This document shows, piece by piece, positions 3 to 24,191 of a stretch of DNA of 64,000 nucleotides (within the stretch, counting starts at the first letter, position 1; each line of letters begins with the position of its first letter). The notes under the pieces are model-generated. The model searched no databases. It was not told the DNA's origin and was given only the letters and a program-made list of their open reading frames with translations. Source of the stretch: an uncultured Chloroflexia bacterium (GTDB lineage Bacteria > Chloroflexota > Limnocylindria > Limnocylindrales > CSP1-4); NCBI GenBank assembly GCA_963791725.1, contig CAWBTQ010000003.1:10516-74515 (forward strand), written 5' to 3'. The position numbers and the translations under genes are program-made.

Positions 3-2993
3 GTGGCCCGGCCGACGAGGGATTCGCCAGCCGGGCCATTGGGATCGAGCCCGGGACATCGGGGATGTACTCGGTTAGCCTCAGCCCCGGTGGACAGAGC
101 ATCGTCGGCCGTGCCAGAGCCCGCGCTTCGGACGTACGCACCAGCTGCGCCCCAGGTGCCGCTCGGCCGCGATGCCGAACTGGAAGCGATCGACGCTTTC
201 TTGTCGGCCGTCGAAGAAGCCTCAGCACCGGCCGCACTGATCCTGCTCGGTGACGCGGGAATCGGTAAGACGATCCTGTTGCGGACGGCTTCGACCCGGG
301 CTGCGGAGCGTGGCTGGCAGATCCTCCGTGCGGCCCCTGCCCAGGCTGAGGGCGAGCTGGCGTACGCGGCGCTGGCAGACCTCCTCCGCGAGGTCGACCA
401 GGCGGTTGACGCTGAACTCCCGGAGCCCCAGCGTCAGGCGCTCGTGGTCGCCCGTTCGGGAGCGGCGCCGACCCAAGGATCGATCGCACCGGGCACAGTG
501 GCCGCAGCTCTGCTCGGGATCGTCCGGCGCCTTGCGGACGCTGGCGCCTTGCTCGTAGTCGTCGACGACGTCCAGTGGCTGGATACGGCCACGCGATCGG
601 CCCTCGCCTACACCTTGCGGCGATGCGAAGGGCTCCCGGTCGGCATCCTGGCGAGCCTCCGCGGCGACGCCGACGAGCCGACGCCGCTCGGCCTTGAGCG
701 CGCACTCGATCCGAGCAGACTCGAACGTATCCGGGTCGGCCCGGTCAGCGTGGGCGCTCTCTTCCAGCTGTTGCGGACGCGCCTGGGGCATGCCTTCGCG
801 CGGCCGGCGCTGATGCGGATCGCCGAATGGTCCGGCGGCAATCCACTCTTCGCTCTGGAGATCGGACGGGCGATCCTCGAGTCGGGGAGGTCGCTGCAGC
901 CGGGTGAACCACCCCCGGTCAATCGGGGTCTGTCGAGAGCGCTCGGTGACCGGATACGGGGCCTGCCGAGCGACGTACGACGCACGCTGCTGCTCGCCGC
1001 CCTGGCAACACGACCGACGCTGGCGCTCCTGGAGGCGACGGGCAATTCCCTCGGCTGGGCCGTGCTGCTGCCTGATGACCCGTCCCTGATCTGCGAGCGA
1101 GTGCCAACGATCACCTTCGCCCACCCGCTTCTTCGGGCCGAGGCAGCAGGGATCGCCCCGGCGGACGATCGACGCGCGGCCCATCGGGCGCTCGCGGACC
1201 TGGCCGTCGATCCCGAGGAACGGGCGCGACACCTTGCCCTGGCGGCGACCGGACCAGACGCGGGGGTTGCCGAAGTACTCGAGAGGGCTGCCCGCGACGC
1301 TCGAGGTCGTGGAGCGCCGGAGGCCGCGGCCGAGCTGCTCGAACTGGCCTGCCGGTCGACCCCACCGGGCGCGGCGGAGGCGCTGACCTCCCGGCGTGTC
1401 GAACTCGCCGGGCTGGTGGCGCGGGCCGGGGATGGCACGCGTGCACGGTCGCTCTTGCGAGTGGCGGCCGCCGAGGCGGCACCCGGTCCGAGCCGGGCGT
1501 GTGCGCTCGCGGATCTGGCGCGGCTCGTCGTCCAGACAGACGGACCCGCGGCGGCCGTCGCCACATGCCGGACCGCCGCGGAAGAGGCCGACGGCGATGT
1601 TCGGGTACGGGCGGCTGTCGAGCTTGCCTGGTCGGCGGTCGCGCCCGACGCGGTCGAGCAACTCGAACACGCCCGCGCGGCGCTGACGCTGCTCGAAGAC
1701 GGCCCACCCGCACTACGCTCCGGCGCACTCGCGAGCGTGGCGCTCGCGGAGGCGAGCCTGGGCCGCGCCGTCCCCTGGACTCTGCTCGACGAGGCGATCG
1801 CGCTCGAGGCGTCCGATCCGCCCGAGAGGGTCACCGACTGGGCCGAAGCCAGCCGCGCCTGGCTGCGTTACATGGGCGACGACTTCGAACCTGCGCACCG
1901 GGCGTATGAGCGCCTGCGTCGAGTGGCGCTGGCGATGGGCGACGAGAGCTCACTGGCCAAGTTCTCGATCGAGCTCGCCCAGATTGACCTGCGCGTCGGG
2001 CGCTGGGATGAGCTGGCCGAACACGCTGCCGAGGCCATGACGATCGCCGAGCGCAACGACCGAGAGCGGGACCGGATCATGGCCGTCATCCAACTCGGCG
2101 CCGTAGCCGCGGCCAGGGGCGATGCACGCGAGGCAACCCAGCACCTCGACGAGGCGGGGCGGTTCGCGATGCGCACCGGTGAACCGTTCGTGGCCGGCAT
2201 CGTGGCGGGGAATCGTGGCGCTCTGGCGCTCGCCCTCGGCAACGCCGCAGAAGCGGAGGGTCATTTCCGGGAGTTGGATGGCACGTTCGGCCGGGCGCAT
2301 CTGGGCGATCCCGCACTGTCCCGGTACCAGGGCGACCAGCTCGAGGCACTCATCGAGCTGCGACAGATGGACCGGGCTCGCGCCCTTGCAGACGAGATCG
2401 AGGCGCGGGCCAGGCCGGCCGGCCGGCGACGGGCGATGGCGTTTGTCGCCCGGGGCCGCGGGCTGATGGCCGCGGCAGCGGGCGACCTCGAATCGGCCCT
2501 CGAGGCCACCGCTCGCTCTTATGACGAGCTGAGCGCCCTTGGGCTCCGATTCCAGGCGGCCCGAAGCCTCCTTGTGCGGGGCATGATCCACCGCCGGCGA
2601 CGAGAGAAACGCCTCGCCCACGACGACCTGGGCGCGGCCCTCGCGACCTTCGAAGAGCTTCGAGCCGTGGCCTGGAGCGCCCGCGCACGGAAGGAGCTCG
2701 GTCGCATCGGCCTTCGCCCCCGCGCATCCGACGTGTTGACCGAGACGGAGCGAACCGTGGCGCGGCTGGCCGCAGAAGGACGAACGAGTCGCGAGATCGC
2801 CTCCCTTGCCTTCATGAGTCCGCGCACAGTTGAAGGCGTGCTCGGCCGTGTCTACCTCAAGCTCGGCGTCGCCTCTCGCGCCGAGCTGGGACGTGCGATG
2901 GCCGTCGCTATGGCCGGCGATGCGGTCCGCCAGTACCGCGGGCAGTCGACTCCGTCACTGCTCGACCCGGCCGACCACCACCACCTCGCATAG
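3..2993 (+). CDS. LuxR-family transcriptional regulator with N-terminal P-loop NTPase domain (LAL/MalT-like); 5' end may lie outside the window
   Basis: 996-aa ORF. Walker A GDAGIGKT and Walker B-like LLVVVDDVQWLD near the N-terminus. Long helical/TPR-like middle. C-terminal LuxR HTH (TETERTVARLAAEGRTSREIASLAFMSPRTVEGVLGRVYLKLGV). The ORF opens at nt 3 with no upstream stop. Confidence 0.85.
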   Translation: MARPTRDSPAGPLGSSPGHRGCTRLASAPVDRASSAVPEPALRTYAPAAPQVPLGRDAELEAIDAFLSAVEEASAPAALILLGDAGIGKTILLRTASTRAAERGWQILRAAPAQAEGELAYAALADLLREVDQAVDAELPEPQRQALVVARSGAAPTQGSIAPGTVAAALLGIVRRLADAGALLVVVDDVQWLDTATRSALAYTLRRCEGLPVGILASLRGDADEPTPLGLERALDPSRLERIRVGPVSVGALFQLLRTRLGHAFARPALMRIAEWSGGNPLFALEIGRAILESGRSLQPGEPPPVNRGLSRALGDRIRGLPSDVRRTLLLAALATRPTLALLEATGNSLGWAVLLPDDPSLICERVPTITFAHPLLRAEAAGIAPADDRRAAHRALADLAVDPEERARHLALAATGPDAGVAEVLERAARDARGRGAPEAAAELLELACRSTPPGAAEALTSRRVELAGLVARAGDGTRARSLLRVAAAEAAPGPSRACALADLARLVVQTDGPAAAVATCRTAAEEADGDVRVRAAVELAWSAVAPDAVEQLEHARAALTLLEDGPPALRSGALASVALAEASLGRAVPWTLLDEAIALEASDPPERVTDWAEASRAWLRYMGDDFEPAHRAYERLRRVALAMGDESSLAKFSIELAQIDLRVGRWDELAEHAAEAMTIAERNDRERDRIMAVIQLGAVAAARGDAREATQHLDEAGRFAMRTGEPFVAGIVAGNRGALALALGNAAEAEGHFRELDGTFGRAHLGDPALSRYQGDQLEALIELRQMDRARALADEIEARARPAGRRRAMAFVARGRGLMAAAAGDLESALEATARSYDELSALGLRFQAARSLLVRGMIHRRRREKRLAHDDLGAALATFEELRAVAWSARARKELGRIGLRPRASDVLTETERTVARLAAEGRTSREIASLAFMSPRTVEGVLGRVYLKLGVASRAELGRAMAVAMAGDAVRQYRGQSTPSLLDPADHHHLA

Positions 2994-3072
2994 CGGGTAT
3001 CGCCACCCGCTGCGTCTCAGATCGCGTAATCCCCCGCTTACGTAGGACAGCTGCGCCGTCCACTCTCGGGCC

Positions 3073-3477
3073 ATGTCGCGAGCGTCCCACCGACTCGACC
3101 CCGATCCAGCCGCCCGGTATGTCGCCGAGCGGTACTGGCCCGGCCTCAACCTGGAACGTCTCGAGGGCGGCGAGGTCCTGCTCCGTCGGGCAGCTGCGGC
3201 GATGGCCCGGGAGGGCCGAGCCGTCCGCTACCTCGGAACCACCTTCATCGCGGCCGAGGAGGCCGCGTTCGCGGTGTTCGAGGCCTCCGACCCCGCTTGG
3301 GTCGAGGAGGTGAACCAGCGGGCTGGTCAACCGTTCGATCGGATCGTGCCAGTCATAGACCTGCGGGAATCGGAGCGGCTGAAGCTGCTGCCGCTTTCCA
3401 GGTCTGGCCAGCTGGCTCGAAGGAAACAGATAGGGACCCGTTCGTCGGGCCCGAGAGAACCAAGGAGGTCACCATGA
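3073..3477 (+). CDS. hypothetical protein (small, cytoplasmic)
   Basis: 134-aa ORF. The first ~100 aa look protein-like (ERYWPGLNLERLEGG...AAEEAAFAVFEASDPAWVEEVNQRAG). The C-terminal tail is low-complexity. The last codons overlap the SD and start of the next gene. Confidence 0.4.
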   Translation: MSRASHRLDPDPAARYVAERYWPGLNLERLEGGEVLLRRAAAAMAREGRAVRYLGTTFIAAEEAAFAVFEASDPAWVEEVNQRAGQPFDRIVPVIDLRESERLKLLPLSRSGQLARRKQIGTRSSGPREPRRSP

Positions 3478-4028
3478 TCAGGTCACCGTTGCGCTTGTCC
3501 GCGCTGGTTGCCGCGGTCTCCCTGCTGTTCGTGTCCGCGCCGGTCGCGATGGCCAAGCAGAGCGGCGAGACCGTCTGGGCGAACGGGCAGGAGTGGACGA
3601 TGATCGCGCCCCACGCGATCACGGATCCCAACCCGAACATTCTCGCGAAAGCCCCGCCCCTATACGTCCTGGCCTTCCCCTCGAACGGCCATGGAGGCTG
3701 GATCCTGCCCACCAATTACAGCCCGCAGTGCGACCCGTGCCTGGGCGTTCCTGTGCCCCCGTATCACGATCACCTGCTGACCGGCGCCCCGGGCTTCGGC
3801 ACCAACGGCACGGCCGGCGATTATGAGAGCCCGTGGCGAGTGGTGCTCATGATGTACAACCCCGCCTACGTTCTCGGCGGCGACTTCGTCCCGGTGACGC
3901 GTGACGAAGACCTGGCAGGGGCGATCGCCCATGGCGAGTTCCTCCCCTTCGGGCCGAACGGCGCCTACGAAGTGCCTCTCCCGGTGGTCCTCATCTGTCC
4001 TCTCGTATCACTGAACGCGGCCGGCTAG
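3474..4028 (+). CDS. secreted hypothetical protein
   Basis: ATG at 3474 follows AAGGAGG at 3462-3468. Signal peptide MIRSPLRLSALVAAVSLLFVSAPVAMA. The ORF-track entry 3297..4028 is a 5' over-extension. Confidence 0.6.
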   Translation: MIRSPLRLSALVAAVSLLFVSAPVAMAKQSGETVWANGQEWTMIAPHAITDPNPNILAKAPPLYVLAFPSNGHGGWILPTNYSPQCDPCLGVPVPPYHDHLLTGAPGFGTNGTAGDYESPWRVVLMMYNPAYVLGGDFVPVTRDEDLAGAIAHGEFLPFGPNGAYEVPLPVVLICPLVSLNAAG

Positions 4029-13886: not shown

Positions 13887-14287
13887 CGCCGTTCCTCACT
13901 GACCACCGGCACGCTGACTACCTCCGAATCGGTGGTGGGCCCAGAGGCGGCGGAGTGCCTCGAGTACCCGCGGCCAGGGGATCGGATCGAGGCCATGCAG
14001 ATGGGGAGCGCTTCTGGTCCACGATGGTGCTCCTTCGCACGGACCGTATCCGTCTTGACGCGTCGTGGCTGTCTACGGCTCGCCCCGTCCCACGCTTTGC
14101 GGGGCGCACGTGCCGGGCCAGAGATGGGGCGCTGTGAGATTCGCGACTTCGGGACGACGCGGCGGGGTTTCAGGGTCCGTCGTCCGCTCCGCCCTCGCCG
14201 CAGATGAGAGATCGCGGTGCCGCGGGACCGCGGCGGCTGTAACCTCTGCGTTGCAGGATGGCGCGACCGACGGAGGAGCATTCGAGA

Positions 14288-15568
14288 ATGGGCGACTCGC
14301 TCAAGATCGGCAAGTCGGCGGGGCCGGCAGGCAAAGCCACTGGAATCGCGGCGCCAGCTCAGGACGCTCCGGCAGCACAAACCGCGTCTCTCGTCCTGGT
14401 CCCACCCGCGGCCGTCGCGGTAGTCGAAGAGCGCGAGGCCGCCGGCTCGATCAAGCTCGACGCCGCCACCCTGGCCAAGCTCGACGGCATGGTCGCCGAC
14501 TACGTCGCAGCCATCTCTCAGCTCGACGTAAGTGATCCGAAGTTCGAGTCGCGGATCGCCGACATCCGAACGCTGGGCAACGAAGACGTCAAGGCCGCCT
14601 CGCAGGTCTCCTCGCGCCTCCTCGATCGACCGGTCGGATCGATGCAGAAGGGCGGGCTCGCCACCTCCGCCACCGTGTCCACGAGCCTGCTGCAACTGCG
14701 CCGCCAGATAGACGCCCTCGATCCGAGCCACCAGGGCGATCTGTTCAGCCCGCGCAAGCTCCTCGGCGTCATCCCATTCGGCGACCGGCTGCGCAGCTAC
14801 TTCGCCCGCTACCAGTCGAGCCAGGGCCACATCAACGCCATCGTCGGCGGCCTCGAACGAGGCCAGGCGGAACTGGCCAAGGACAACGCCGACCTCGAGC
14901 GCGAGAAGGAAAACCTGTGGCAGACGATGGAACGTCTGCGCCAGTACATCTATCTCGCCCAGAAGCTCGACGCGAGCCTGACTGAGCGCATCGCCAGGGT
15001 CGAGGCGACGGATCCGGAGCGGGCCCGAGTCCTCAAGGAGGACATGCTCTTCTACGTGCGCCAGAAGGTGCAGGACCTGACCGCACAGCTGGCCGTGAGC
15101 GTCCAGGGCTACCTCTCGATCGACGTGATCCGGCGCAACAACCTCGAGCTGATGCGGGGCGTGGACCGGGCCACGACGACAACGGTCTCGGCACTGCGGA
15201 CGGCCGTGATAGTCGCCCAGGCGCTCGGCGACCAGAAGCTCGTCCTCGACCAGATCACCGCCCTCAACACGACCACTTCCAACCTGATCGAAAGCACCTC
15301 GGCGATGCTTCGCCAGCAGTCGGCGACGATCAACGAACAGGCGTCGTCGTCAACGATCGAGCTGGAGAAGCTGCAGGCGGCATTCGACAACATCTACGCG
15401 ACGATGGACGAGATCGACGCTTTCAAGCTCAAGGCGCTCGACTCGATGACCAAGACGGTCGACGCGCTCACGACCCAGATCAACAAGGCGCAGTCGTACC
15501 TGGATCGCGCCAAGACTGGCGAACCGGCGGCGACCCGGATCGAGGGCGGGACGGCCAAGCCGCACTGA
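14288..15568 (+). CDS. telA: toxic anion resistance protein, TelA/KlaB family
   Basis: Long coiled-coil protein with TelA-like middle and C-terminal regions. I prefer the ATG at 14288 (GGAGG 11 nt upstream) over the ATG at 14258. Confidence 0.8.
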   Translation: MGDSLKIGKSAGPAGKATGIAAPAQDAPAAQTASLVLVPPAAVAVVEEREAAGSIKLDAATLAKLDGMVADYVAAISQLDVSDPKFESRIADIRTLGNEDVKAASQVSSRLLDRPVGSMQKGGLATSATVSTSLLQLRRQIDALDPSHQGDLFSPRKLLGVIPFGDRLRSYFARYQSSQGHINAIVGGLERGQAELAKDNADLEREKENLWQTMERLRQYIYLAQKLDASLTERIARVEATDPERARVLKEDMLFYVRQKVQDLTAQLAVSVQGYLSIDVIRRNNLELMRGVDRATTTTVSALRTAVIVAQALGDQKLVLDQITALNTTTSNLIESTSAMLRQQSATINEQASSSTIELEKLQAAFDNIYATMDEIDAFKLKALDSMTKTVDALTTQINKAQSYLDRAKTGEPAATRIEGGTAKPH

Positions 15569-15790
15569 TCGTCGGCATCGGCGCCGGTCGGCGCCGCCGG
15601 AGCAAGGCGACTCTGACGCGAAGCTAAGCGTCGCCGAGCGCAGGCCGCGGCGAGCGGCAACCGGATCGTCAGGCGCCCGATCGTCGAGCATCGGCGCCGG
15701 TCGGCGCCGCCGGGGCAAGGCGACTCTGACGCGAAGCTAAGCGTCGCCGAGCGCAGGCCGCCGCGAGCGGCAACCGATCGTCAGGCGGGC
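15568..15790. repeat. 112-bp intergenic tandem duplication (2 copies) between convergent telA and merR-arsC; each copy carries GC-rich stem-loops
   Basis: Copy 1 is 15568-15679 and copy 2 is 15680-15790. They differ by 3 substitutions and 2 single-base indels. Each contains GGCGACtctgACGCgaagctaaGCGTCGCC and GGCGCCggtcGGCGCC. The unit is bounded by ATCGTC direct repeats. Confidence 0.8.
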
Positions 15791-16611
15791 GCGCCCTCCG
15801 GCGCTCGGCGGGCGCGTCGGGCCAACTCGACGAACGGACGAAGCCGCGTCGCCACCTCGGTCCGCGTCCGTCGGAAGGCTTCGAGCTTCTGCTCGTCCGT
15901 GCCCTCGACCTCGGCCGGGTCGTCGAGGCCCCAGTGGAGTGAGTTGTGTTCGCCCGGGAAGACCGGACACGTCTGGCGGGCTCGATCGCAGACCGTGATG
16001 ACATAGTCGAACCGCTGGCCGAGGAACTCGGTCACCGACTTGCTCTTCGCGCCGGACCAGTCGATGCCGATCTCGCCGAGGGCCCGAACCGTGTAGGGGT
16101 TGACGCCCTTTGGCTCGGTTCCCGCGGACAGTGCCTCGAACTCGGCGCCGCCGAAGTCGCGCAGCAACGCCTCCGCGATCTGGCTGCGCGCGGAGTTGCC
16201 GGTGCAGACGAAGAGAACTCGGATCGGTGCGGCCATGGTTTCCTCCCGGGTGCGCCGGGCTCGGCCGGCGGCGGCGATTGTCAACTCCAGATCGATCAAC
16301 TCCGCGTCAAGGCGGTCGAGGTCGGAACGCTGGTGAGAAATGGCGGCGCGCTGGCGGGCGATCAGCGGCTCGAGATCGATATCGATTTCGCCGCGGTCGA
16401 CGCACAGCGATGCGAGCCGGCCGGCTTCGACGGGTGGGAGTCCCAGGCGGCGCAGCGCCACGACCAGGCTCAGGCGGCTCAGCGCATCATCGCCGTAGTC
16501 CCGGTAGCCATTCTCGCCACGAGCCGCCGGCGGGAGAACTCCGGTCTCCTCGTAGAAGCGTATGGCAGAGGGGGCGACGCCGGCGCGTCGGGCGAGCTCG
16601 GAGACCTTCAT
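15781..16611 (-). CDS. arsC: MerR-family HTH regulator fused to low-molecular-weight-phosphatase-type arsenate reductase (ArsC)
   Basis: N-terminus: MerR HTH MKVSELARRAGVAPSAIRFYEETGVL plus a coiled-coil dimerisation helix. C-terminus: LMW-PTP fold with CTGNSARS (CX5R P-loop) and downstream Cys/Asp typical of thioredoxin-coupled ArsC. Confidence 0.85.
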   Translation of the reverse strand: MKVSELARRAGVAPSAIRFYEETGVLPPAARGENGYRDYGDDALSRLSLVVALRRLGLPPVEAGRLASLCVDRGEIDIDLEPLIARQRAAISHQRSDLDRLDAELIDLELTIAAAGRARRTREETMAAPIRVLFVCTGNSARSQIAEALLRDFGGAEFEALSAGTEPKGVNPYTVRALGEIGIDWSGAKSKSVTEFLGQRFDYVITVCDRARQTCPVFPGEHNSLHWGLDDPAEVEGTDEQKLEAFRRTRTEVATRLRPFVELARRARRAPEGAPA

Positions 16612-16660
16612 GACGCAACCCTACACCTTCAAGCCACTTGAAGGTCAAGGGGCGCGCCGG
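16612..16660 (-). promoter_or_regulatory. MerR-type promoter: -35 TTGACC, 19-bp spacer containing the dyad CCTTCAAGccaCTTGAAGG, -10 TAGGGT 6 nt before the ATG (leaderless)
   Basis: On the minus strand: cccTTGACCttcaagtggcttgaaggtgTAGGGTtgcgtcATG. The 19-bp spacer plus internal palindrome is the hallmark of MerR-regulated promoters. Confidence 0.55.
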
Positions 16661-16713
16661 GGGTTGCGGGCCTGCGCCGACTGTGCCGCGGCAGACGCGG
16701 GCGGGTCAGCGGG

Positions 16714-17058
16714 CTATGTCGGCCGCGTCAGCGCCAGGACCGTCGGCTTTCCGGAAAGCGCGGCGGCCGTGCGCGGGAGCCCCGGCACCAACTCCCCTGC
16801 CAGCTCGCGGAAGCGGGCTACGGCCTCAGGCCGGAGCGAGTAGTAGATCCACGTCCCCTTGCGCTCGGTCGTGACCCAGCCGGCGGTCCTCAGAACGCGC
16901 AGGTGGTGCGACACGGTGGGCTGGCCAACCGTGCAGCAGTCGGCAAAGTCGCAGGCGCAGACGGCGCCGTCGGCGCTCAGCTCGCGGAGTATCGAGAGTC
17001 TTGCGGGGTCGGCGGCCGCCCGAAGGAGCAGGACGTCCGGATCGGTCGAGCGTTTCAT
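16714..17058 (-). CDS. arsR: ArsR/SmtB-family metalloregulator
   Basis: Start MKRSTDPD at 17058. wHTH with metal-site CACDF (CVC-type As(III) site). A 5' ORF extension to 17283 would overlap the arsM promoter and is unlikely. Confidence 0.85.
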   Translation of the reverse strand: MKRSTDPDVLLLRAAADPARLSILRELSADGAVCACDFADCCTVGQPTVSHHLRVLRTAGWVTTERKGTWIYYSLRPEAVARFRELAGELVPGLPRTAAALSGKPTVLALTRPT

Positions 17059-17139
17059 GTTCTCAAGGATATCGACTAATTTCGATATTGACAACCGTCG
17101 ATATAGCCGATATGGTAGGCTCCGAAAGGAGATCGAAGA
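17059..17139. promoter_or_regulatory. arsR/arsM divergent control region: -35 TTGACA (17088-93), 17-bp spacer, -10 TATGGT (17111-16), SD AAAGGAG; overlapping CGATAT dyad/direct repeats (candidate ArsR operator)
   Basis: Dyads ATATCGA-ctaatt-TCGATAT (17069-17088) and ATATCGAC...GTCGATAT flank the -35. A further CGATAT lies at 17108. AT-rich island in GC-rich DNA. Confidence 0.45.
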
Positions 17140-17307
17140 ATGTCGATCCATTACAGCCCCGAGCTCGTCAAGACGCTCATGAACGAGAACCTGCGCGAGG
17201 CGCGCCGAGCCATGGAGGTCCACTGCTGCGAGGAGCCGCGGGTCGAGCCCAGGCGCTCCTTCCGCAGCCTCTTCCGGCGCCAATCCTCCGCCGCGTGCGG
17301 ATGCTAG
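17140..17307 (+). CDS. small Cys-rich ORF (55 aa) between arsR and arsM, not in the ORF track (<60 aa)
   Basis: MSIHYSPELVKTLMNENLREARRAMEVHCCEEPRVEPRRSFRSLFRRQSSAACGC*. SD AAAGGAG 8 nt upstream. Strongly G/C-biased third positions. Vicinal CC and C-terminal CGC resemble the Cys-rich tail of the adjacent ArsM (…SCGCGSCCG*). Confidence 0.4.
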   Translation: MSIHYSPELVKTLMNENLREARRAMEVHCCEEPRVEPRRSFRSLFRRQSSAACGC

Positions 17308-17317
17308 GGAGCCCCTA

Positions 17318-18142
17318 ATGACCGCCGAGATCCACGAAGAGGTCCGCCTCCACTACGCGGAAGCCGCCCGGGGCGTCGCCTCCGGCGAGTCGTGCTGCAG
17401 CGACAGCGGCAACTACGGCAGCGAGCTCTACTCCGCTCTCGAGCGCAACGAGCTTCCCGACGCGGCCGTGATGGCATCGCTCGGCTGCGGCAACCCCATC
17501 GCCGTCGCCGATCTGCGCGAAGGAGAGCGGGTTCTGGACCTGGGTTCCGGGGGCGGCATCGACGTGCTGCTGTCGGCCAAGCGGGTCGGGCCGAGCGGCC
17601 GGGCCTTCGGTCTCGACATGACCGATGAGATGCTGGCTCTCGCTCAGAGCAACGCCGCCGCTGCCGGCGCCACGAACGTCGAATGGCTCAGGGGCCAGAT
17701 CGAATCGATCCCGCTGCCCGCAGCCTCGATCGACGTCGTCATAAGCAACTGCGTCGTGAACCTGGCCGCCGACAAGCCGTCCGTCTTCCGAGAGATCGCG
17801 CGTGTCCTGCGGCCGGGCGGACGAATCGGCATCACCGATATCGTCGCCGACGACTCGCTCACGCTCGAAGATCGGCGCGAGCGCGGATCGTACGCCGGCT
17901 GCATCGCCGGCGCCCTGTCGTTCTCTGAGTTCCGCTCAGGGCTGGAGGAAGTCGGACTCGAGGACGTGTCCCTGACCGTCACCCACGAGGTCGCCGATCG
18001 GCTGTTCAGCGTCATAGTCAAGGCCCGCAAGGGGCCTGGTTCGGGCGATGAGAAGGCGGCGTACCCCGCCCACGCAGAAAGCGCGAAAACCGAGGCCGCT
18101 GCCGTCGCCCAGTCGTGCGGCTGCGGGAGTTGCTGCGGATGA
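17318..18142 (+). CDS. arsM: arsenite S-adenosylmethionine methyltransferase ArsM
   Basis: SAM-MTase motif I VLDLGSGGGID. Conserved As(III)-binding cysteines (ESCCSD, LGCGNP, AGCIAG). Cys-rich C-terminal tail. Confidence 0.9.
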   Translation: MTAEIHEEVRLHYAEAARGVASGESCCSDSGNYGSELYSALERNELPDAAVMASLGCGNPIAVADLREGERVLDLGSGGGIDVLLSAKRVGPSGRAFGLDMTDEMLALAQSNAAAAGATNVEWLRGQIESIPLPAASIDVVISNCVVNLAADKPSVFREIARVLRPGGRIGITDIVADDSLTLEDRRERGSYAGCIAGALSFSEFRSGLEEVGLEDVSLTVTHEVADRLFSVIVKARKGPGSGDEKAAYPAHAESAKTEAAAVAQSCGCGSCCG

Positions 18143-19464
18143 TGGCGGTCGAACGCGCGCTCGACTCGGATCGACCTGCGATCGAGGGCTTGCTGAACGC
18201 AAACGAACTGCCGCTGGACGGGCTCGAGACCGCACTGCAGACAGCTGTCGTCGCCCGCGCCGCCGGGGGCGTCGTTGGTTGCGCGGCCATCGAGCCGTAC
18301 GGTCCGGTCGGGCTCCTACGGTCCGTCTGCGTCGCGGCCGAATTGCGCGGTTCGGGCGTAGGCAGCCGGCTTGTTGCCGCCGCCGAGGCCCTGGCGGCCG
18401 AGCGCGGCATCAAGGATCTCTACCTGCTGACCGAAACGGCCGAGTCGTGGTTTCCGCGCCTCGGCTATGTGGCGGCGGCGCGAAGCGCGGTCCCGGCGGA
18501 GCTGACGGCGTCACCGGAATTTGCAGGCGCATGCCCGGACAGCGCAGCGGTCCTGCACAAGCGCCTGCAGTCGTCTGCGGCGAGACTCGAGGAGCCGAAG
18601 CCGGGTGCCCGAACGAGCCAGGCAGCCACGACAGCCTCGGTGGCACCGGCGGCGACGTCCGGGCCTCAGCCCGCCGCCCTCGAGCCAGCCCCGGACCGGC
18701 TCCCGGCCGTCTACCTCGGCCACGGCGCGCCGAACCTGATCGACGACCAGCTCTGGCCGGTCGAGCTGGCCGCATGGGCAAAGGAGATGCCGCGCCCCAG
18801 GTCGATCCTGGTAGTGAGCGCACACTGGCAATCCGCGCCGCTCACCGTCGGGGCGGTCAACCGTGCGCCGCTCGTGTACGACTTCTACGGCTTCCCCGAG
18901 CGTTACTACCAGATCCGCTACGACTCCCCCGCCGCCCCGGATCTCGCGGCACGAATCAAGGCACTGATGCCGCCGAGCGAACCGGTGGCGCAACGCGAGC
19001 GCGGCCTGGACCACGGCGCATACGTGCCGCTGCTGGTCATGTATCCGGAGGCCGACATCCCTGTCTTGCAGATGTCGATGCCGGACCTGGCGCCACAGCG
19101 CCTCTTCGAAATCGGCCGGCGGCTGGCGCCCCTGCGCGACGAGGGCGTCCTGATCATGGGCAGCGGCTTCATGACCCACGGGCTGCCGTTCGTTCACGAC
19201 TACTGGGACGGCCGGCCGGGCGCGCCCGAATGGTCGGCCGAGTTCGACCTCTGGGCAGCCGAGATGCTCGAGAAGGGCGACGTCGACTCGCTGTTCGACT
19301 TCCGCAACAAGGCCCCCGGCATGCCTTTCGCCCATCCAACGGTCGAGCACTTCGCGCCGCTGTTTGTCGCGCTGGGCGCCGCGACCGACCCGACGGCGGC
19401 TCCGAAATTCACGATCGAGGGCTACTGGCTGGGCCTGGCCAAACGTTCGTTCGAGGTCCGCTGA
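18139..19464 (+). CDS. fusion protein: ArsN-like GNAT N-acetyltransferase (N-term, ~150 aa) + class III (LigB/DODA-type) extradiol ring-cleavage dioxygenase (C-term, ~270 aa)
   Basis: The start ATG at 18139 overlaps the arsM TGA (ATGA). GNAT core AIEPYGPVGLLRSVCVAAELRGSGVGSRLV. A Pro/Ala/Thr linker follows. The dioxygenase module matches the YgiD/DODA fold (LGHGAPN, SAHWQSAPL, MGSGFMTHGL, PTVEHFAPLFVALGA). One continuous frame. Confidence 0.8.
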   Translation: MMAVERALDSDRPAIEGLLNANELPLDGLETALQTAVVARAAGGVVGCAAIEPYGPVGLLRSVCVAAELRGSGVGSRLVAAAEALAAERGIKDLYLLTETAESWFPRLGYVAAARSAVPAELTASPEFAGACPDSAAVLHKRLQSSAARLEEPKPGARTSQAATTASVAPAATSGPQPAALEPAPDRLPAVYLGHGAPNLIDDQLWPVELAAWAKEMPRPRSILVVSAHWQSAPLTVGAVNRAPLVYDFYGFPERYYQIRYDSPAAPDLAARIKALMPPSEPVAQRERGLDHGAYVPLLVMYPEADIPVLQMSMPDLAPQRLFEIGRRLAPLRDEGVLIMGSGFMTHGLPFVHDYWDGRPGAPEWSAEFDLWAAEMLEKGDVDSLFDFRNKAPGMPFAHPTVEHFAPLFVALGAATDPTAAPKFTIEGYWLGLAKRSFEVR

Positions 19465-19642
19465 CGGGCTGAGGATTCGCCCGGGCCGGCGAAGCCGGCC
19501 GCCGATCGGCACGCGGCGTCAACGTTCTTGACCCGCGGCGCTGCCCTCCGGTACCATGCGCAGCGCTAATTCCGAGTAACTAAGTAAGAATTGCGCGCCG
19601 TGGCCGCCCGCCGCCGCGCCCCGTCCCTGCCGAGAGGAACAG

Positions 19643-23440: not shown

Positions 23441-23678
23441 GTGCTCGTTCTGATGACATTTCTGCACGCTAGCCAACGACGGCATCGCCCCACCGGTGCT
23501 CGCGGTCGCGGCCTCCGACGACTTATGAGCCGTTCGGCACTTGCGTAGCTGGCATCAGACCGAATGCTGGCGCGCGGACGGGGAGCTATGACGTGCGGCC
23601 TTAACAGCTGCCGCCGGGACTGCGCCGAGCCACTGGCAAGACCTACCGGCACGCCGCCGAACGGAGAGGGGCCGGGTA

Positions 23679-24191
23679 ATGGACACCAATCCTGGACGCG
23701 TTCACCTGCTTGTTGGTCTTATTGCCGCTTTGGCCCTAGCCGCGTGTAGTGGAGGGGCCGCCCCAACGACATCCCCAACGGCGAACGTACAGCCTTCGCC
23801 CACGGCCGCGGACAGCACCGTCGCTGTGCACGGCGTGGAGGATTGCCAGATCATCGACGCGGTCTACGAGGGCACGACTGACCGCGAACGGTTCCACTGC
23901 CAGGAAACCACCTCGGACGCCAGACTCAATGGCGAATGGGAGACCTGGTACGTCACGGAGGAGACCGGGGGCGGCCTCGGCACATGGACCGGCGAGCTCG
24001 TCATGACGAACTCGGGCGGCACCTGGCGTGGCAAGGCCTCGGGCACCACAACCGGCATACCTGGCAATCCCGTGAACCTCGGCCTCGTCGTGTGGGTCGG
24101 CGAGGGCGGCTATTCCGGACTGACCTACCACGAGTTCGTCTATGGCTCGAACGATCGGCTGGACACCGCCGGCTGGGTGGAACCCTCGTAG
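23679..24191 (+). CDS. hypothetical lipoprotein
   Basis: Lipobox LALAAC-S. 170 aa. Gly/Thr-rich beta-type sequence. Confidence 0.6.
   Translation: MDTNPGRVHLLVGLIAALALAACSGGAAPTTSPTANVQPSPTAADSTVAVHGVEDCQIIDAVYEGTTDRERFHCQETTSDARLNGEWETWYVTEETGGGLGTWTGELVMTNSGGTWRGKASGTTTGIPGNPVNLGLVVWVGEGGYSGLTYHEFVYGSNDRLDTAGWVEPS

Follow-up and report, generated by a model that had tools for sequence, protein, structure and literature searches.

A family of small proteins with a terminal C-x-C encoded between divergent arsR and arsM genes, and its possible part in arsenic methylation

Introduction

What does an open reading frame (ORF) of 55 codons, placed between the divergent genes arsR and arsM of an uncultured Chloroflexia bacterium (GTDB order Limnocylindrales), contribute to arsenic resistance, if it encodes a protein at all? 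The ORF lies in a stretch of 64,000 nucleotides (contig CAWBTQ010000003.1 of assembly GCA_963791725.1, positions 10,516 to 74,515), which we refer to as the window. Arsenic methylation by ArsM governs the toxicity and mobility of arsenic in soils, peat and rice paddies, and ArsM has so far been studied as a stand-alone enzyme that draws on cytoplasmic As(III)-thiol conjugates. An earlier inspection of the DNA alone (hereafter the sequence-only reading) had suggested that the ORF encodes a small As(III)-binding metallochaperone or trap, or else a regulatory leader peptide. Our analysis demonstrates that the small ORF is a real, conserved protein-coding gene. As to its role, gene order and cysteine motifs point tentatively to a partner of ArsM.

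The small ORF is a conserved gene

The small ORF occupies positions 17140..17307 of the forward strand (ATG at 17140, TAG at 17305..17307), translates to MSIHYSPELVKTLMNENLREARRAMEVHCCEEPRVEPRRSFRSLFRRQSSAACGC, and is present in a single copy in the 64-kb window. A Shine-Dalgarno (SD) sequence, AAAGGAG, is located at 17125..17131(+), 8 nucleotides (nt) ahead of the ATG. The G+C content of the ORF at the three codon positions is 0.59/0.50/0.93. The flanking genes displayed the same pattern, with third-position values (GC3) of 0.84-0.87, and the GC3 signature of 0.93 is confined to the ORF's own frame. All the features that had been described for the ORF were found in place, namely its 55-residue translation, the SD sequence, a TTGACA/TATGGT promoter and third positions rich in G/C.

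The identity of the flanking genes was confirmed by Pfam and NCBIfam. On one side, arsR (16714..17058, reverse strand) encodes a 114-residue metalloregulator of the ArsR/SmtB type (Pfam HTH_5, 6e-10; NCBIfam NF033788, 88 bits). Directly ahead of its helix-turn-helix (HTH) this protein displayed the sequence VCACDFADCC, which we take to be the counterpart of CVCDLC, the As(III) site in R773 ArsR. On the other side, arsM (17318..18142, forward strand) encodes a 274-residue arsenite S-adenosylmethionine methyltransferase (NCBIfam NF008823 'arsenite methyltransferase', 272.6 bits against a cutoff of 263; Pfam Methyltransf_31, 4e-29), with cysteines at SCC (25-26), GCGNP (56), C144 and C194.

The small ORF and arsM are closely joined. 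An SD-like motif of arsM, AGGGAG at 17306..17311(+), overlaps the TAG of the small ORF, and the ATG of arsM follows 10 nt past this stop. In the related loci, too, the stop runs into an SD-like motif, reading TAGGGAG, TAAGGA or TGAGGA, and 8-13 nt separate the stop from the arsM start, the only exceptions being a locus with an 80-nt spacer (L001) and a frameshifted one (L028). This is the arrangement of a translationally coupled upstream cistron, in which the stop falls within or next to the downstream ribosome-binding site, and it fits any hypothesis that gives the protein a function. Programmed frameshifting into arsM was considered and rejected, since the gap varies (8, 10, 11, 12 or 13 nt) and leaves no fixed relative frame. 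The spacer of L001 (427..506) is an insertion with a relic duplicate of the 3' end of the ORF, in which CTTCCGCCGCCAGTCCCCCGCC would encode FRRQSPA; the live copy is further from the family consensus.

Homologues of the small protein

A word-index search revealed that a protein identical to the one encoded in the window (P0001) is already present in an NCBI/ENA-derived protein collection. The same search found a 55-residue relative with 75% identity, whose 542-bp contig displayed the same order of arsR, ORF and arsM. A HMMER search against 1.84 billion representatives, for which the window protein was the founding member of the profile, returned 33 hits, 28 of which were proteins of 54-66 residues aligned end to end; relatives scored between E = 7.5e-17 and 1e-3, and no long protein in this collection carried the full family profile. 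Finally, a profile search of a 5.8-billion-protein collection yielded 96 clusters at 90% identity, all of 41-68 residues and all without Pfam domains.

The window protein had no Pfam or NCBIfam match at E <= 1. Neither the 89 family members nor the family profile matched Pfam, NCBIfam or PDB, the best PDB hit being a helix of chloroplast NdhB at E = 1.9. Where relatives have been given a name, it is 'hypothetical protein' (JGI, NCBI), as for ABSB75_00860 of a Candidatus Limnocylindrales metagenome-assembled genome (MAG). The statement that the gene is unannotated and missed by standard pipelines is therefore corrected by the identical protein P0001 and by its named relatives: what the small protein lacks is a family name and a function, not a gene call. 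Judged by its N-terminal motif, its terminal C-x-C tail and its position between divergent arsR and arsM, it represents a new and so far unnamed family, and it illustrates clearly how a functional protein of about 55 residues can be called as a gene and still lack a family name.

The other five HMMER hits (P0017, P0019, P0033, P0034 and P0036) were set aside as sharing a motif only. These are large proteins composed of repeats of about 65 residues (APEGWxT...NPEYFKEF...HYSPELVxxI), each repeat ending in (H/Y)YSPELVxxI, and they probably form an unrelated repeat family.

Conservation of gene order

We examined 39 related loci. One came from a genome scan (L002, a MAG labelled Anaerolineaceae), 26 from a metagenome scan run with a 9-sequence alignment, one from an ENA contig, five were reached via the most divergent family members, and six were chosen through ArsM homologues alone (74-77% identity). 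Most of these loci were found through the small ORF itself, a bias that the six ArsM-picked loci mitigate. The order arsR(-), small ORF(+), arsM(+) was maintained throughout: a family member sits directly 5' of arsM in 39 of 39 loci, and arsR is divergent wherever the upstream DNA suffices, across some 80 nt of conserved intergenic DNA. The blind sample chosen by ArsM agreed, with the small ORF before arsM in 6/6 loci, including one in which the source had left it uncalled (L037) and one in which it begins with GTG (L034). The family was never met outside this context in the 39 loci, its most divergent members included.

Conservation of the ORF in syntenic relatives had been named as a check on whether it is a gene, and the ORF passed it. 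It is intact in 38 of the 39 loci. In the one exception, L028, arsR and arsM are frameshifted as well, so sequencing errors are the likely source. An (A)AAGGAG-like SD sequence (AAGGAG, CAGGAG, AAGAGG or AAGGGAG) precedes the ORF in 28 of the 29 loci listed, with one further, weaker case in L034.

Two loci, L034 (2432..2614 and 2803..2991) and L014 (~104..295 and 436..606), harbor two diverged copies of the small-protein gene in tandem. The first copy is diverged (MWLNYP..., with the end C-A-x-C), the second copy abuts arsM, and a terminal pair of cysteines is kept in both. A degenerate box resembling the operator described below lies between the copies (ATATTGATCG...TCGATAT in L034 and ATATCGAT...CAATAT in L014).

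The NCBI names of the relatives are mostly Candidatus Limnocylindrales (Chloroflexota). The family is confined to one lineage of uncultured soil bacteria, with signs of lateral transfer, and samples in which the loci occur include peat and fen. In L035 (1..357 and 2820..3861) a gene of the phage integrase family lies some 2.5 kb away from the cassette of arsR, small ORF and arsM, and the ArsM of this cassette carries the NCBI label Verrucomicrobiota. This points to lateral transfer of the cassette, or else to an error in binning.

Protein anatomy and selection

Column conservation in an alignment of 89 family representatives divides the small protein into three parts. Residues 1-23 follow the consensus MS[IM]YYSPE[LI]V[KR]LLMEER[LI]REA, with Y4, Y5, P7, L13, R17, E20 and A21 conserved in at least 90%. 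The N-terminus of the window protein, MSIHYSPELVKTLMNENLREA, displayed this motif with deviations at H4 and N17. Next comes a linker that is variable in sequence and length, in which insertions and deletions are always in frame; the family spans 51-68 residues, and 54-66 in the loci read. The last part is a basic tail, R-x-LFRR-x-(S/T)PA-x-C-x-C, that ends at the stop. The window tail, LFRRQSSAACGC (codons 44-55, 17269..17304, forward strand, directly before the stop), conforms to it.

Conservation of the cysteines, also named beforehand as a check, turned out to differ between the two pairs. The terminal pair, Cys53-Gly-Cys55 in the window (codons at 17296..17304), is a family trait: C53 is present in 83/89 representatives, C55 in 88/88 aligned, and the exact end C-x-C-stop in 83/89. 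Many members end in C-A-C, where the window protein ends in CGC. The vicinal pair Cys29-Cys30 (codons at 17224..17229) is found in 42/89 only and is absent from whole subclades, which disqualifies it as the functional core; 37 of the 89 representatives have no cysteine at all beyond the last six residues. The sequence-only reading had also heard in the C-terminal CGC an echo of the Cys-rich tail of ArsM. This echo is real, as the window ArsM ends in SCGCGSCCG and the tail takes the form SCGCxGxC across the related loci. Between the internal CC and the cysteine complement of ArsM no link was seen, since the SCC, the GCGNP and the Cys-rich tail of ArsM are kept in both the subclades with and without it.

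Selection on the gene was measured as the ratio of nonsynonymous to synonymous substitution rates (dN/dS), using pooled pairwise Nei-Gojobori estimates, which are approximate as synonymous sites are near saturation (dS about 1). Among 29 distinct orthologous sequences, codons 1-23 gave a dN/dS of 0.22 (with dS about 1.1), the middle of the gene 1.03, the tail 0.68 and the ORF as a whole 0.53. Within the same 17 loci it was 0.20 for arsM, 0.20 for arsR and 0.51 for the small ORF. Thus, the comparison of dN/dS across orthologues that had been called for places the first 23 codons on a level with arsR and arsM.

AlphaFold2, run with the family alignment, predicted one helix over residues 7-28 (codons at 17158..17223, forward strand), with a predicted local distance difference test (pLDDT) score of 85-92 for this block, and a remainder that is disordered (55-59). 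The conserved face of the helix, composed of Y4, Y5, P7, V10, L13, R17, E20 and A21, is mixed in character, charged as well as hydrophobic.

Promoter and operator-like palindromes

The promoter of the small ORF-arsM operon is of the sigma-70 type and lies at 17088..17116(+), with TTGACA and TATGGT separated by 17 nt (10/12 consensus positions). A divergent promoter-like site for arsR (TTGTCA-17-TATCCT, 9/12 matches) is located at 17094..17066 on the reverse strand. Three promoter-like sites were found in the scanned 3-kb region, where shuffled sequences gave an expectation of 0.2, and most of the related intergenic regions read have the hexamers in the corresponding position.

These promoters are interwoven with palindromes. 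A perfect 7-bp inverted repeat, ATATCGA-N6-TCGATAT, at 17069..17088 is the putative ArsR operator, whose right arm reaches as far as the -35 hexamer and overlaps it. Of the 28 related intergenic regions read, most have this repeat in the corresponding position; several of them vary in the right arm, and in L014, L033 and L034 the repeat is out of register. A third operator half-site, GTCGATAT at 17097..17104, stands between the -35 and -10 hexamers, and a TCGATAT half-site is present there in most relatives. From this arrangement we straightforwardly infer a divergent promoter that As(III) would derepress, with the small protein as its first product.

A second operator-like palindrome, ATCGA-N6-TCGAT, at 17132..17147 spans the region from the SD sequence to the start, together with codons 1-3 of the small ORF. 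The stretch ATG TCG AT, which is its right arm, is nearly invariant, and Ser2 is encoded by TCG in almost all loci, while from codon 4 on synonymous variation is free. This pattern indicates that codons 1-3 are under constraint at the level of DNA, and it suggests that ArsR has another site here, past the start of transcription.

A proposed partner of ArsM

Based on these findings, we propose that the small protein is a dedicated, metallochaperone-like partner of ArsM, which would hand over As(III) or hold trivalent methylarsenite (MAs(III)) by thiol exchange, a role that we consider plausible while stopping short of calling it probable. The small ORF would be the first cistron of an ArsR-repressed, arsenite-inducible operon followed by arsM and the GNAT gene, and its product would be cytoplasmic. 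On this account As(III) would free ArsR from ATATCGA-N6-TCGATAT, so that the small protein and ArsM would be produced together. The flexible C-x-C thiol pair could then bind trivalent arsenic, be it As(III) or the two-coordinate MAs(III); the extra CC in the subclade of the window would complete a three-thiolate site for As(III). Meanwhile, the conserved face of the helix would dock on ArsM, and arsenic would move by thiol ligand exchange to or from the catalytic cysteines of the enzyme. ArsM is the presumed partner because arsM is the only gene whose adjacency never varies. That only two cysteines are conserved, and not three, makes MAs(III), with its two free coordination positions, a better fit than As(III). 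The observations that we count in favor of this role are the dN/dS of the N-terminus, equal to that of arsR and arsM, the adjacency to arsM including the blind 6/6, the terminal C-x-C with the confidently predicted helix, the C-A-C of the ArsR of the locus, the Cys-rich tail of ArsM, the operator-like palindrome over the -35 hexamer, and the tandem paralogues that both retain a terminal Cys pair.

A more specific version of this idea, which we regard as possible and somewhat doubtful, is that the small protein is the first dedicated partner of an arsenite methyltransferase: an 'arm' supplied in trans, anchored by its helix and bearing two thiols, that holds MAs(III) or delivers As(III) at the active site of ArsM. 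Such an arm would guide arsenic into methylation, or onward to the ArsP permease or other genes downstream, and keep it from escaping into the cytoplasm of host organisms that may lack glutathione.

ArsD, the nearest analogue in function, offers a working analogy, being also a small cytoplasmic protein of ars operons with cysteine thiols, encoded directly 5' of the gene of its client enzyme. ArsD is the metallochaperone of the ArsA ATPase. It has about 120 residues, a thioredoxin-like fold, and Cys12-Cys13-Cys18, which includes a vicinal pair, and it works by ligand exchange. The small protein, in contrast, has 55 residues, one helix with a disordered rest, and its conserved cysteines in a C-terminal C-x-C. 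None of the 89 family members matched Pfam ArsD, and no ArsA-type ATPase appeared among the genes tabulated for the related loci or within the ars cassette (arsR, small ORF, arsM, GNAT-LigB and MerR-LMWPc), the only part of the window inspected for arsA. The protein therefore differs from ArsD in sequence, fold, cysteine pattern and neighboring gene alike. Nor does it resemble the HMA-domain metallochaperones (CopZ, MerP, Atx1), which have a beta-alpha-beta-beta-alpha-beta fold and an MxCxxC loop, as it displayed no HMA match, no predicted beta strands and no CxxC.

Further parallels, of mechanism only, are found in the C-terminal arms of larger proteins. The CXC in domain III of the copper chaperone CCS and the Cys-Cys of the mercuric reductase MerA take a soft metal ion and pass it to buried active-site cysteines. 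The likeness lies in a flexible tail with two close cysteines, and ArsM here has a Cys tail as well. However, those arms belong to large folded proteins, whereas here we have a separate protein of 55 residues, the ligand proposed is arsenic, and there is no sequence relationship. A precedent for a C-x-C that binds As(III) is provided by ArsR of the R773 type, whose site is formed by Cys32-Val-Cys34 with Cys37. The ArsR of this locus and the ends of many family members share such a pair in the form C-A-C; the R773 site is nevertheless inside a winged-helix DNA-binding domain, while the small protein has no HTH.

Several observations count against a role as partner of ArsM. The window copy itself differs at three near-invariant positions (H4, N17 and S50), and P0073, a widespread variant found on 96 contigs, has just one terminal cysteine, in the end sequence ...AAGGC. 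The dN/dS of the ORF as a whole is 0.51-0.53, its middle third is neutral, and part of the N-terminal conservation is accounted for by the palindrome that constrains the nucleotides of codons 1-3. As(III) prefers three thiolates, of which two cysteines can supply no more than two. No fusion of the small protein with ArsM was found, the longer ArsM homologues carrying only N-terminal extensions. We infer arsenic binding, docking on ArsM and hand-off alike from sequence. To our knowledge, the ArsM of other lineages works without a partner of this kind, so the small protein is not essential to catalysis.

Some ArsMs of the clade (L007, from about 1365 onward; P0171, P0183, P0167, P0227, P0132 and P0212) displayed a low-complexity extension rich in Thr, Ala and Pro, of 15-55 residues, before the conserved DIHE(A/T)VR start.

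In the literature searched, nothing relevant was found on a small ORF or chaperone tied to arsM; its coverage was incomplete, which makes this an absence of evidence only. Should a partnership with ArsM be true, the small Cys-tailed protein would be a new component of the ars gene catalogue, and substrate delivery or containment of MAs(III) could be mediated by a protein. Its restriction to one uncultured lineage limits the generality of such a finding. At the same time, it is a very small and easily synthesized peptide, which suits it to a direct test of that idea.

Alternative explanations

Among the alternatives the first is that the protein is a small arsenic-responsive regulator, in which the helix would bind ArsR or ArsM and the C-x-C would sense As(III) or MAs(III), tuning derepression or enzyme activity. 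The model for this is again ArsD, which was first described as a second trans-acting regulator. In every locus the gene lies beside the divergent promoter of arsR, a second operator-like palindrome covers its start codon, and the mixed charged and hydrophobic face of the helix is typical of an interface between proteins, with an Arg-rich basic tail beside it. But the gene that is invariably adjacent is arsM, 8-13 nt away, the protein displayed neither a DNA-binding domain nor a known regulatory one, and a single helix with a disordered tail provides no independent evidence for such a role. We consider a regulator of this kind unlikely.

A second alternative gives the peptide a secondary part. 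What would matter is the translation of the small ORF and its termination on the ribosome-binding site of arsM (termination-reinitiation), or the nascent chain, for example through stalling at the terminal Cys codons when arsenic depletes cysteine or thiols. This cis-acting role is, in our judgment, rather unlikely. It would explain why the stop is embedded in the SD-like motif of arsM with a gap of 8-13 nt in nearly all loci, why the small ORF is always the first cistron, and why frame and end point are kept around a neutral middle. It would not account for codons 1-23, where a dN/dS of 0.22 with saturated synonymous sites means that the amino-acid sequence is selected, in a segment that at termination would already be beyond the ribosomal tunnel; nor for the tail LFRRxSPAACxC, which is conserved as protein. 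Furthermore, arsM has its own SD sequence, L001 retains the ORF even though its 80-nt spacer breaks the coupling, and the first of the tandem paralogues in L034 and L014 lies far from arsM.

The search for control at the level of RNA also speaks against such a role. No terminator-like site was found in 16600..19600, and neither the junction between the ORF and arsM nor the leader as a whole was predicted to fold better than shuffled sequences (z = +0.45 and -0.04, respectively). Rfam contained no family that matched at the small ORF, with the locus searched at permissive E-values and the whole window at gathering thresholds. A riboswitch or attenuator was dropped as a candidate on these three grounds. 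Leader peptides such as TnaC, the trp and his leaders and ErmCL are similar in that they are the short first ORF of an inducible operon, with a stop beside the start of the regulated gene. The small ORF, however, is longer than is typical of them and has no attenuator and no run of regulatory codons beyond the two Cys. With neither terminator nor antiterminator, a gap of 8-13 nt, two terminal Cys codons only and purifying selection on the N-terminus, the suggestion of a regulatory leader peptide is disfavored.

Third, the protein might be a stand-alone trap or buffer, similar to a metallothionein, that sequesters As(III) or the more toxic MAs(III) and delivers it to no partner, an explanation that we find quite unlikely. 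It has a terminal thiol pair, to which about half of the members add the CC, it would be induced together with the enzyme that generates MAs(III), and genes for MAs(III) permeases of the ArsP type are found nearby in several relatives. Like SmtA and MymT, it would be a small, Cys-containing, metal-inducible and cytoplasmic protein. Metallothioneins, though, have many more cysteines and these are clustered, while the window protein has 4 in 55 residues and no Pfam match; with 2-4 Cys per 55-68 residues across the family, the stoichiometric capacity would be poor in comparison. A general buffer would also be expected beside other ars genes or alone, whereas this family was seen only before arsM (39/39 loci), and trapping leaves the conserved helix unexplained.

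A fourth explanation, by analogy with known redox proteins, is that the C-x-C is redox-active and recycles a disulfide between N-terminal cysteines of ArsM during catalysis. ArsM catalysis reportedly passes through a Cys-Cys disulfide that needs reduction, and redox-active precedents exist in the CGC arm of Erv2p and the CXC of CCS. A flexible C-terminal C-x-C (CGC in the window) and the strict coupling to ArsM would fit this role. On the other hand, CxC disulfides are strained and relatively oxidising, which makes them poor reductants, the small protein has no thioredoxin-like fold, and some loci hold separate thioredoxin genes. We therefore rate a disulfide relay as improbable.

Finally, a chance ORF, which might be feared in GC-rich DNA, where high-GC genomes yield many long spurious ORFs and the surrounding 7 kb alone contains 66 ORFs of at least 40 residues, has virtually no chance of being the explanation and is refuted by the comparative data, since GC3 reaches 0.93 in this frame only, 39 loci and 96 clusters agree in SD sequence, start, end point and motifs, and the N-terminus is under purifying selection.

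Neighboring genes of the arsenic island

The next gene in the operon after arsM (18115..19464, forward strand) overlaps its end by 28 nt and encodes a protein of 449 residues, in which a GNAT (ArsN-like) acetyltransferase is fused to an extradiol dioxygenase of the LigB type (Pfam LigB, 1.4e-31; Acetyltransf_7, 1.9e-11). A GNAT gene follows arsM in most relatives and is usually separate, encoding 143-153 residues. GNAT and LigB are two genes in most relatives; they are far apart in L005, have a MarR gene between them in L035 and L036, and adjoin in L037, where they align as a single stretch. The fusion in the window may have arisen recently, when a stop or a spacer was lost.

On the reverse strand, 3' of arsR, a gene at 15781..16611 encodes 276 residues that combine an HTH of the MerR type with a low-molecular-weight phosphatase, the fold of ArsC-type arsenate reductases (Pfam LMWPc, 9e-20; MerR_1, 1.3e-15). 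This fusion belongs to the same conserved arsenic island and could be a regulator linked to arsenate reductase. It is full-length in most related loci at about 70-94% identity, and some relatives encode the phosphatase alone (151-157 residues).

Genes for ArsP-type MAs(III) permeases are close to the cassette in several relatives. The island is flanked by a TelA-like (toxic anion resistance) gene at 14258..15568(+), as it is in L029-L031, L034 and L039; the Pfam TelA assignment was made on the genes of these relatives and not on the ORF of the window.

Further downstream in the window, Rfam identified a variant of the c-di-GMP-II-GAG riboswitch (RF03169, 45 bits against a gathering score of 40) at 23572..23656(+). 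This site lies 22 nt upstream of an ORF of 170 residues (23679..24191, forward strand) that displayed a lipoprotein-like signal (LALAACSGG).

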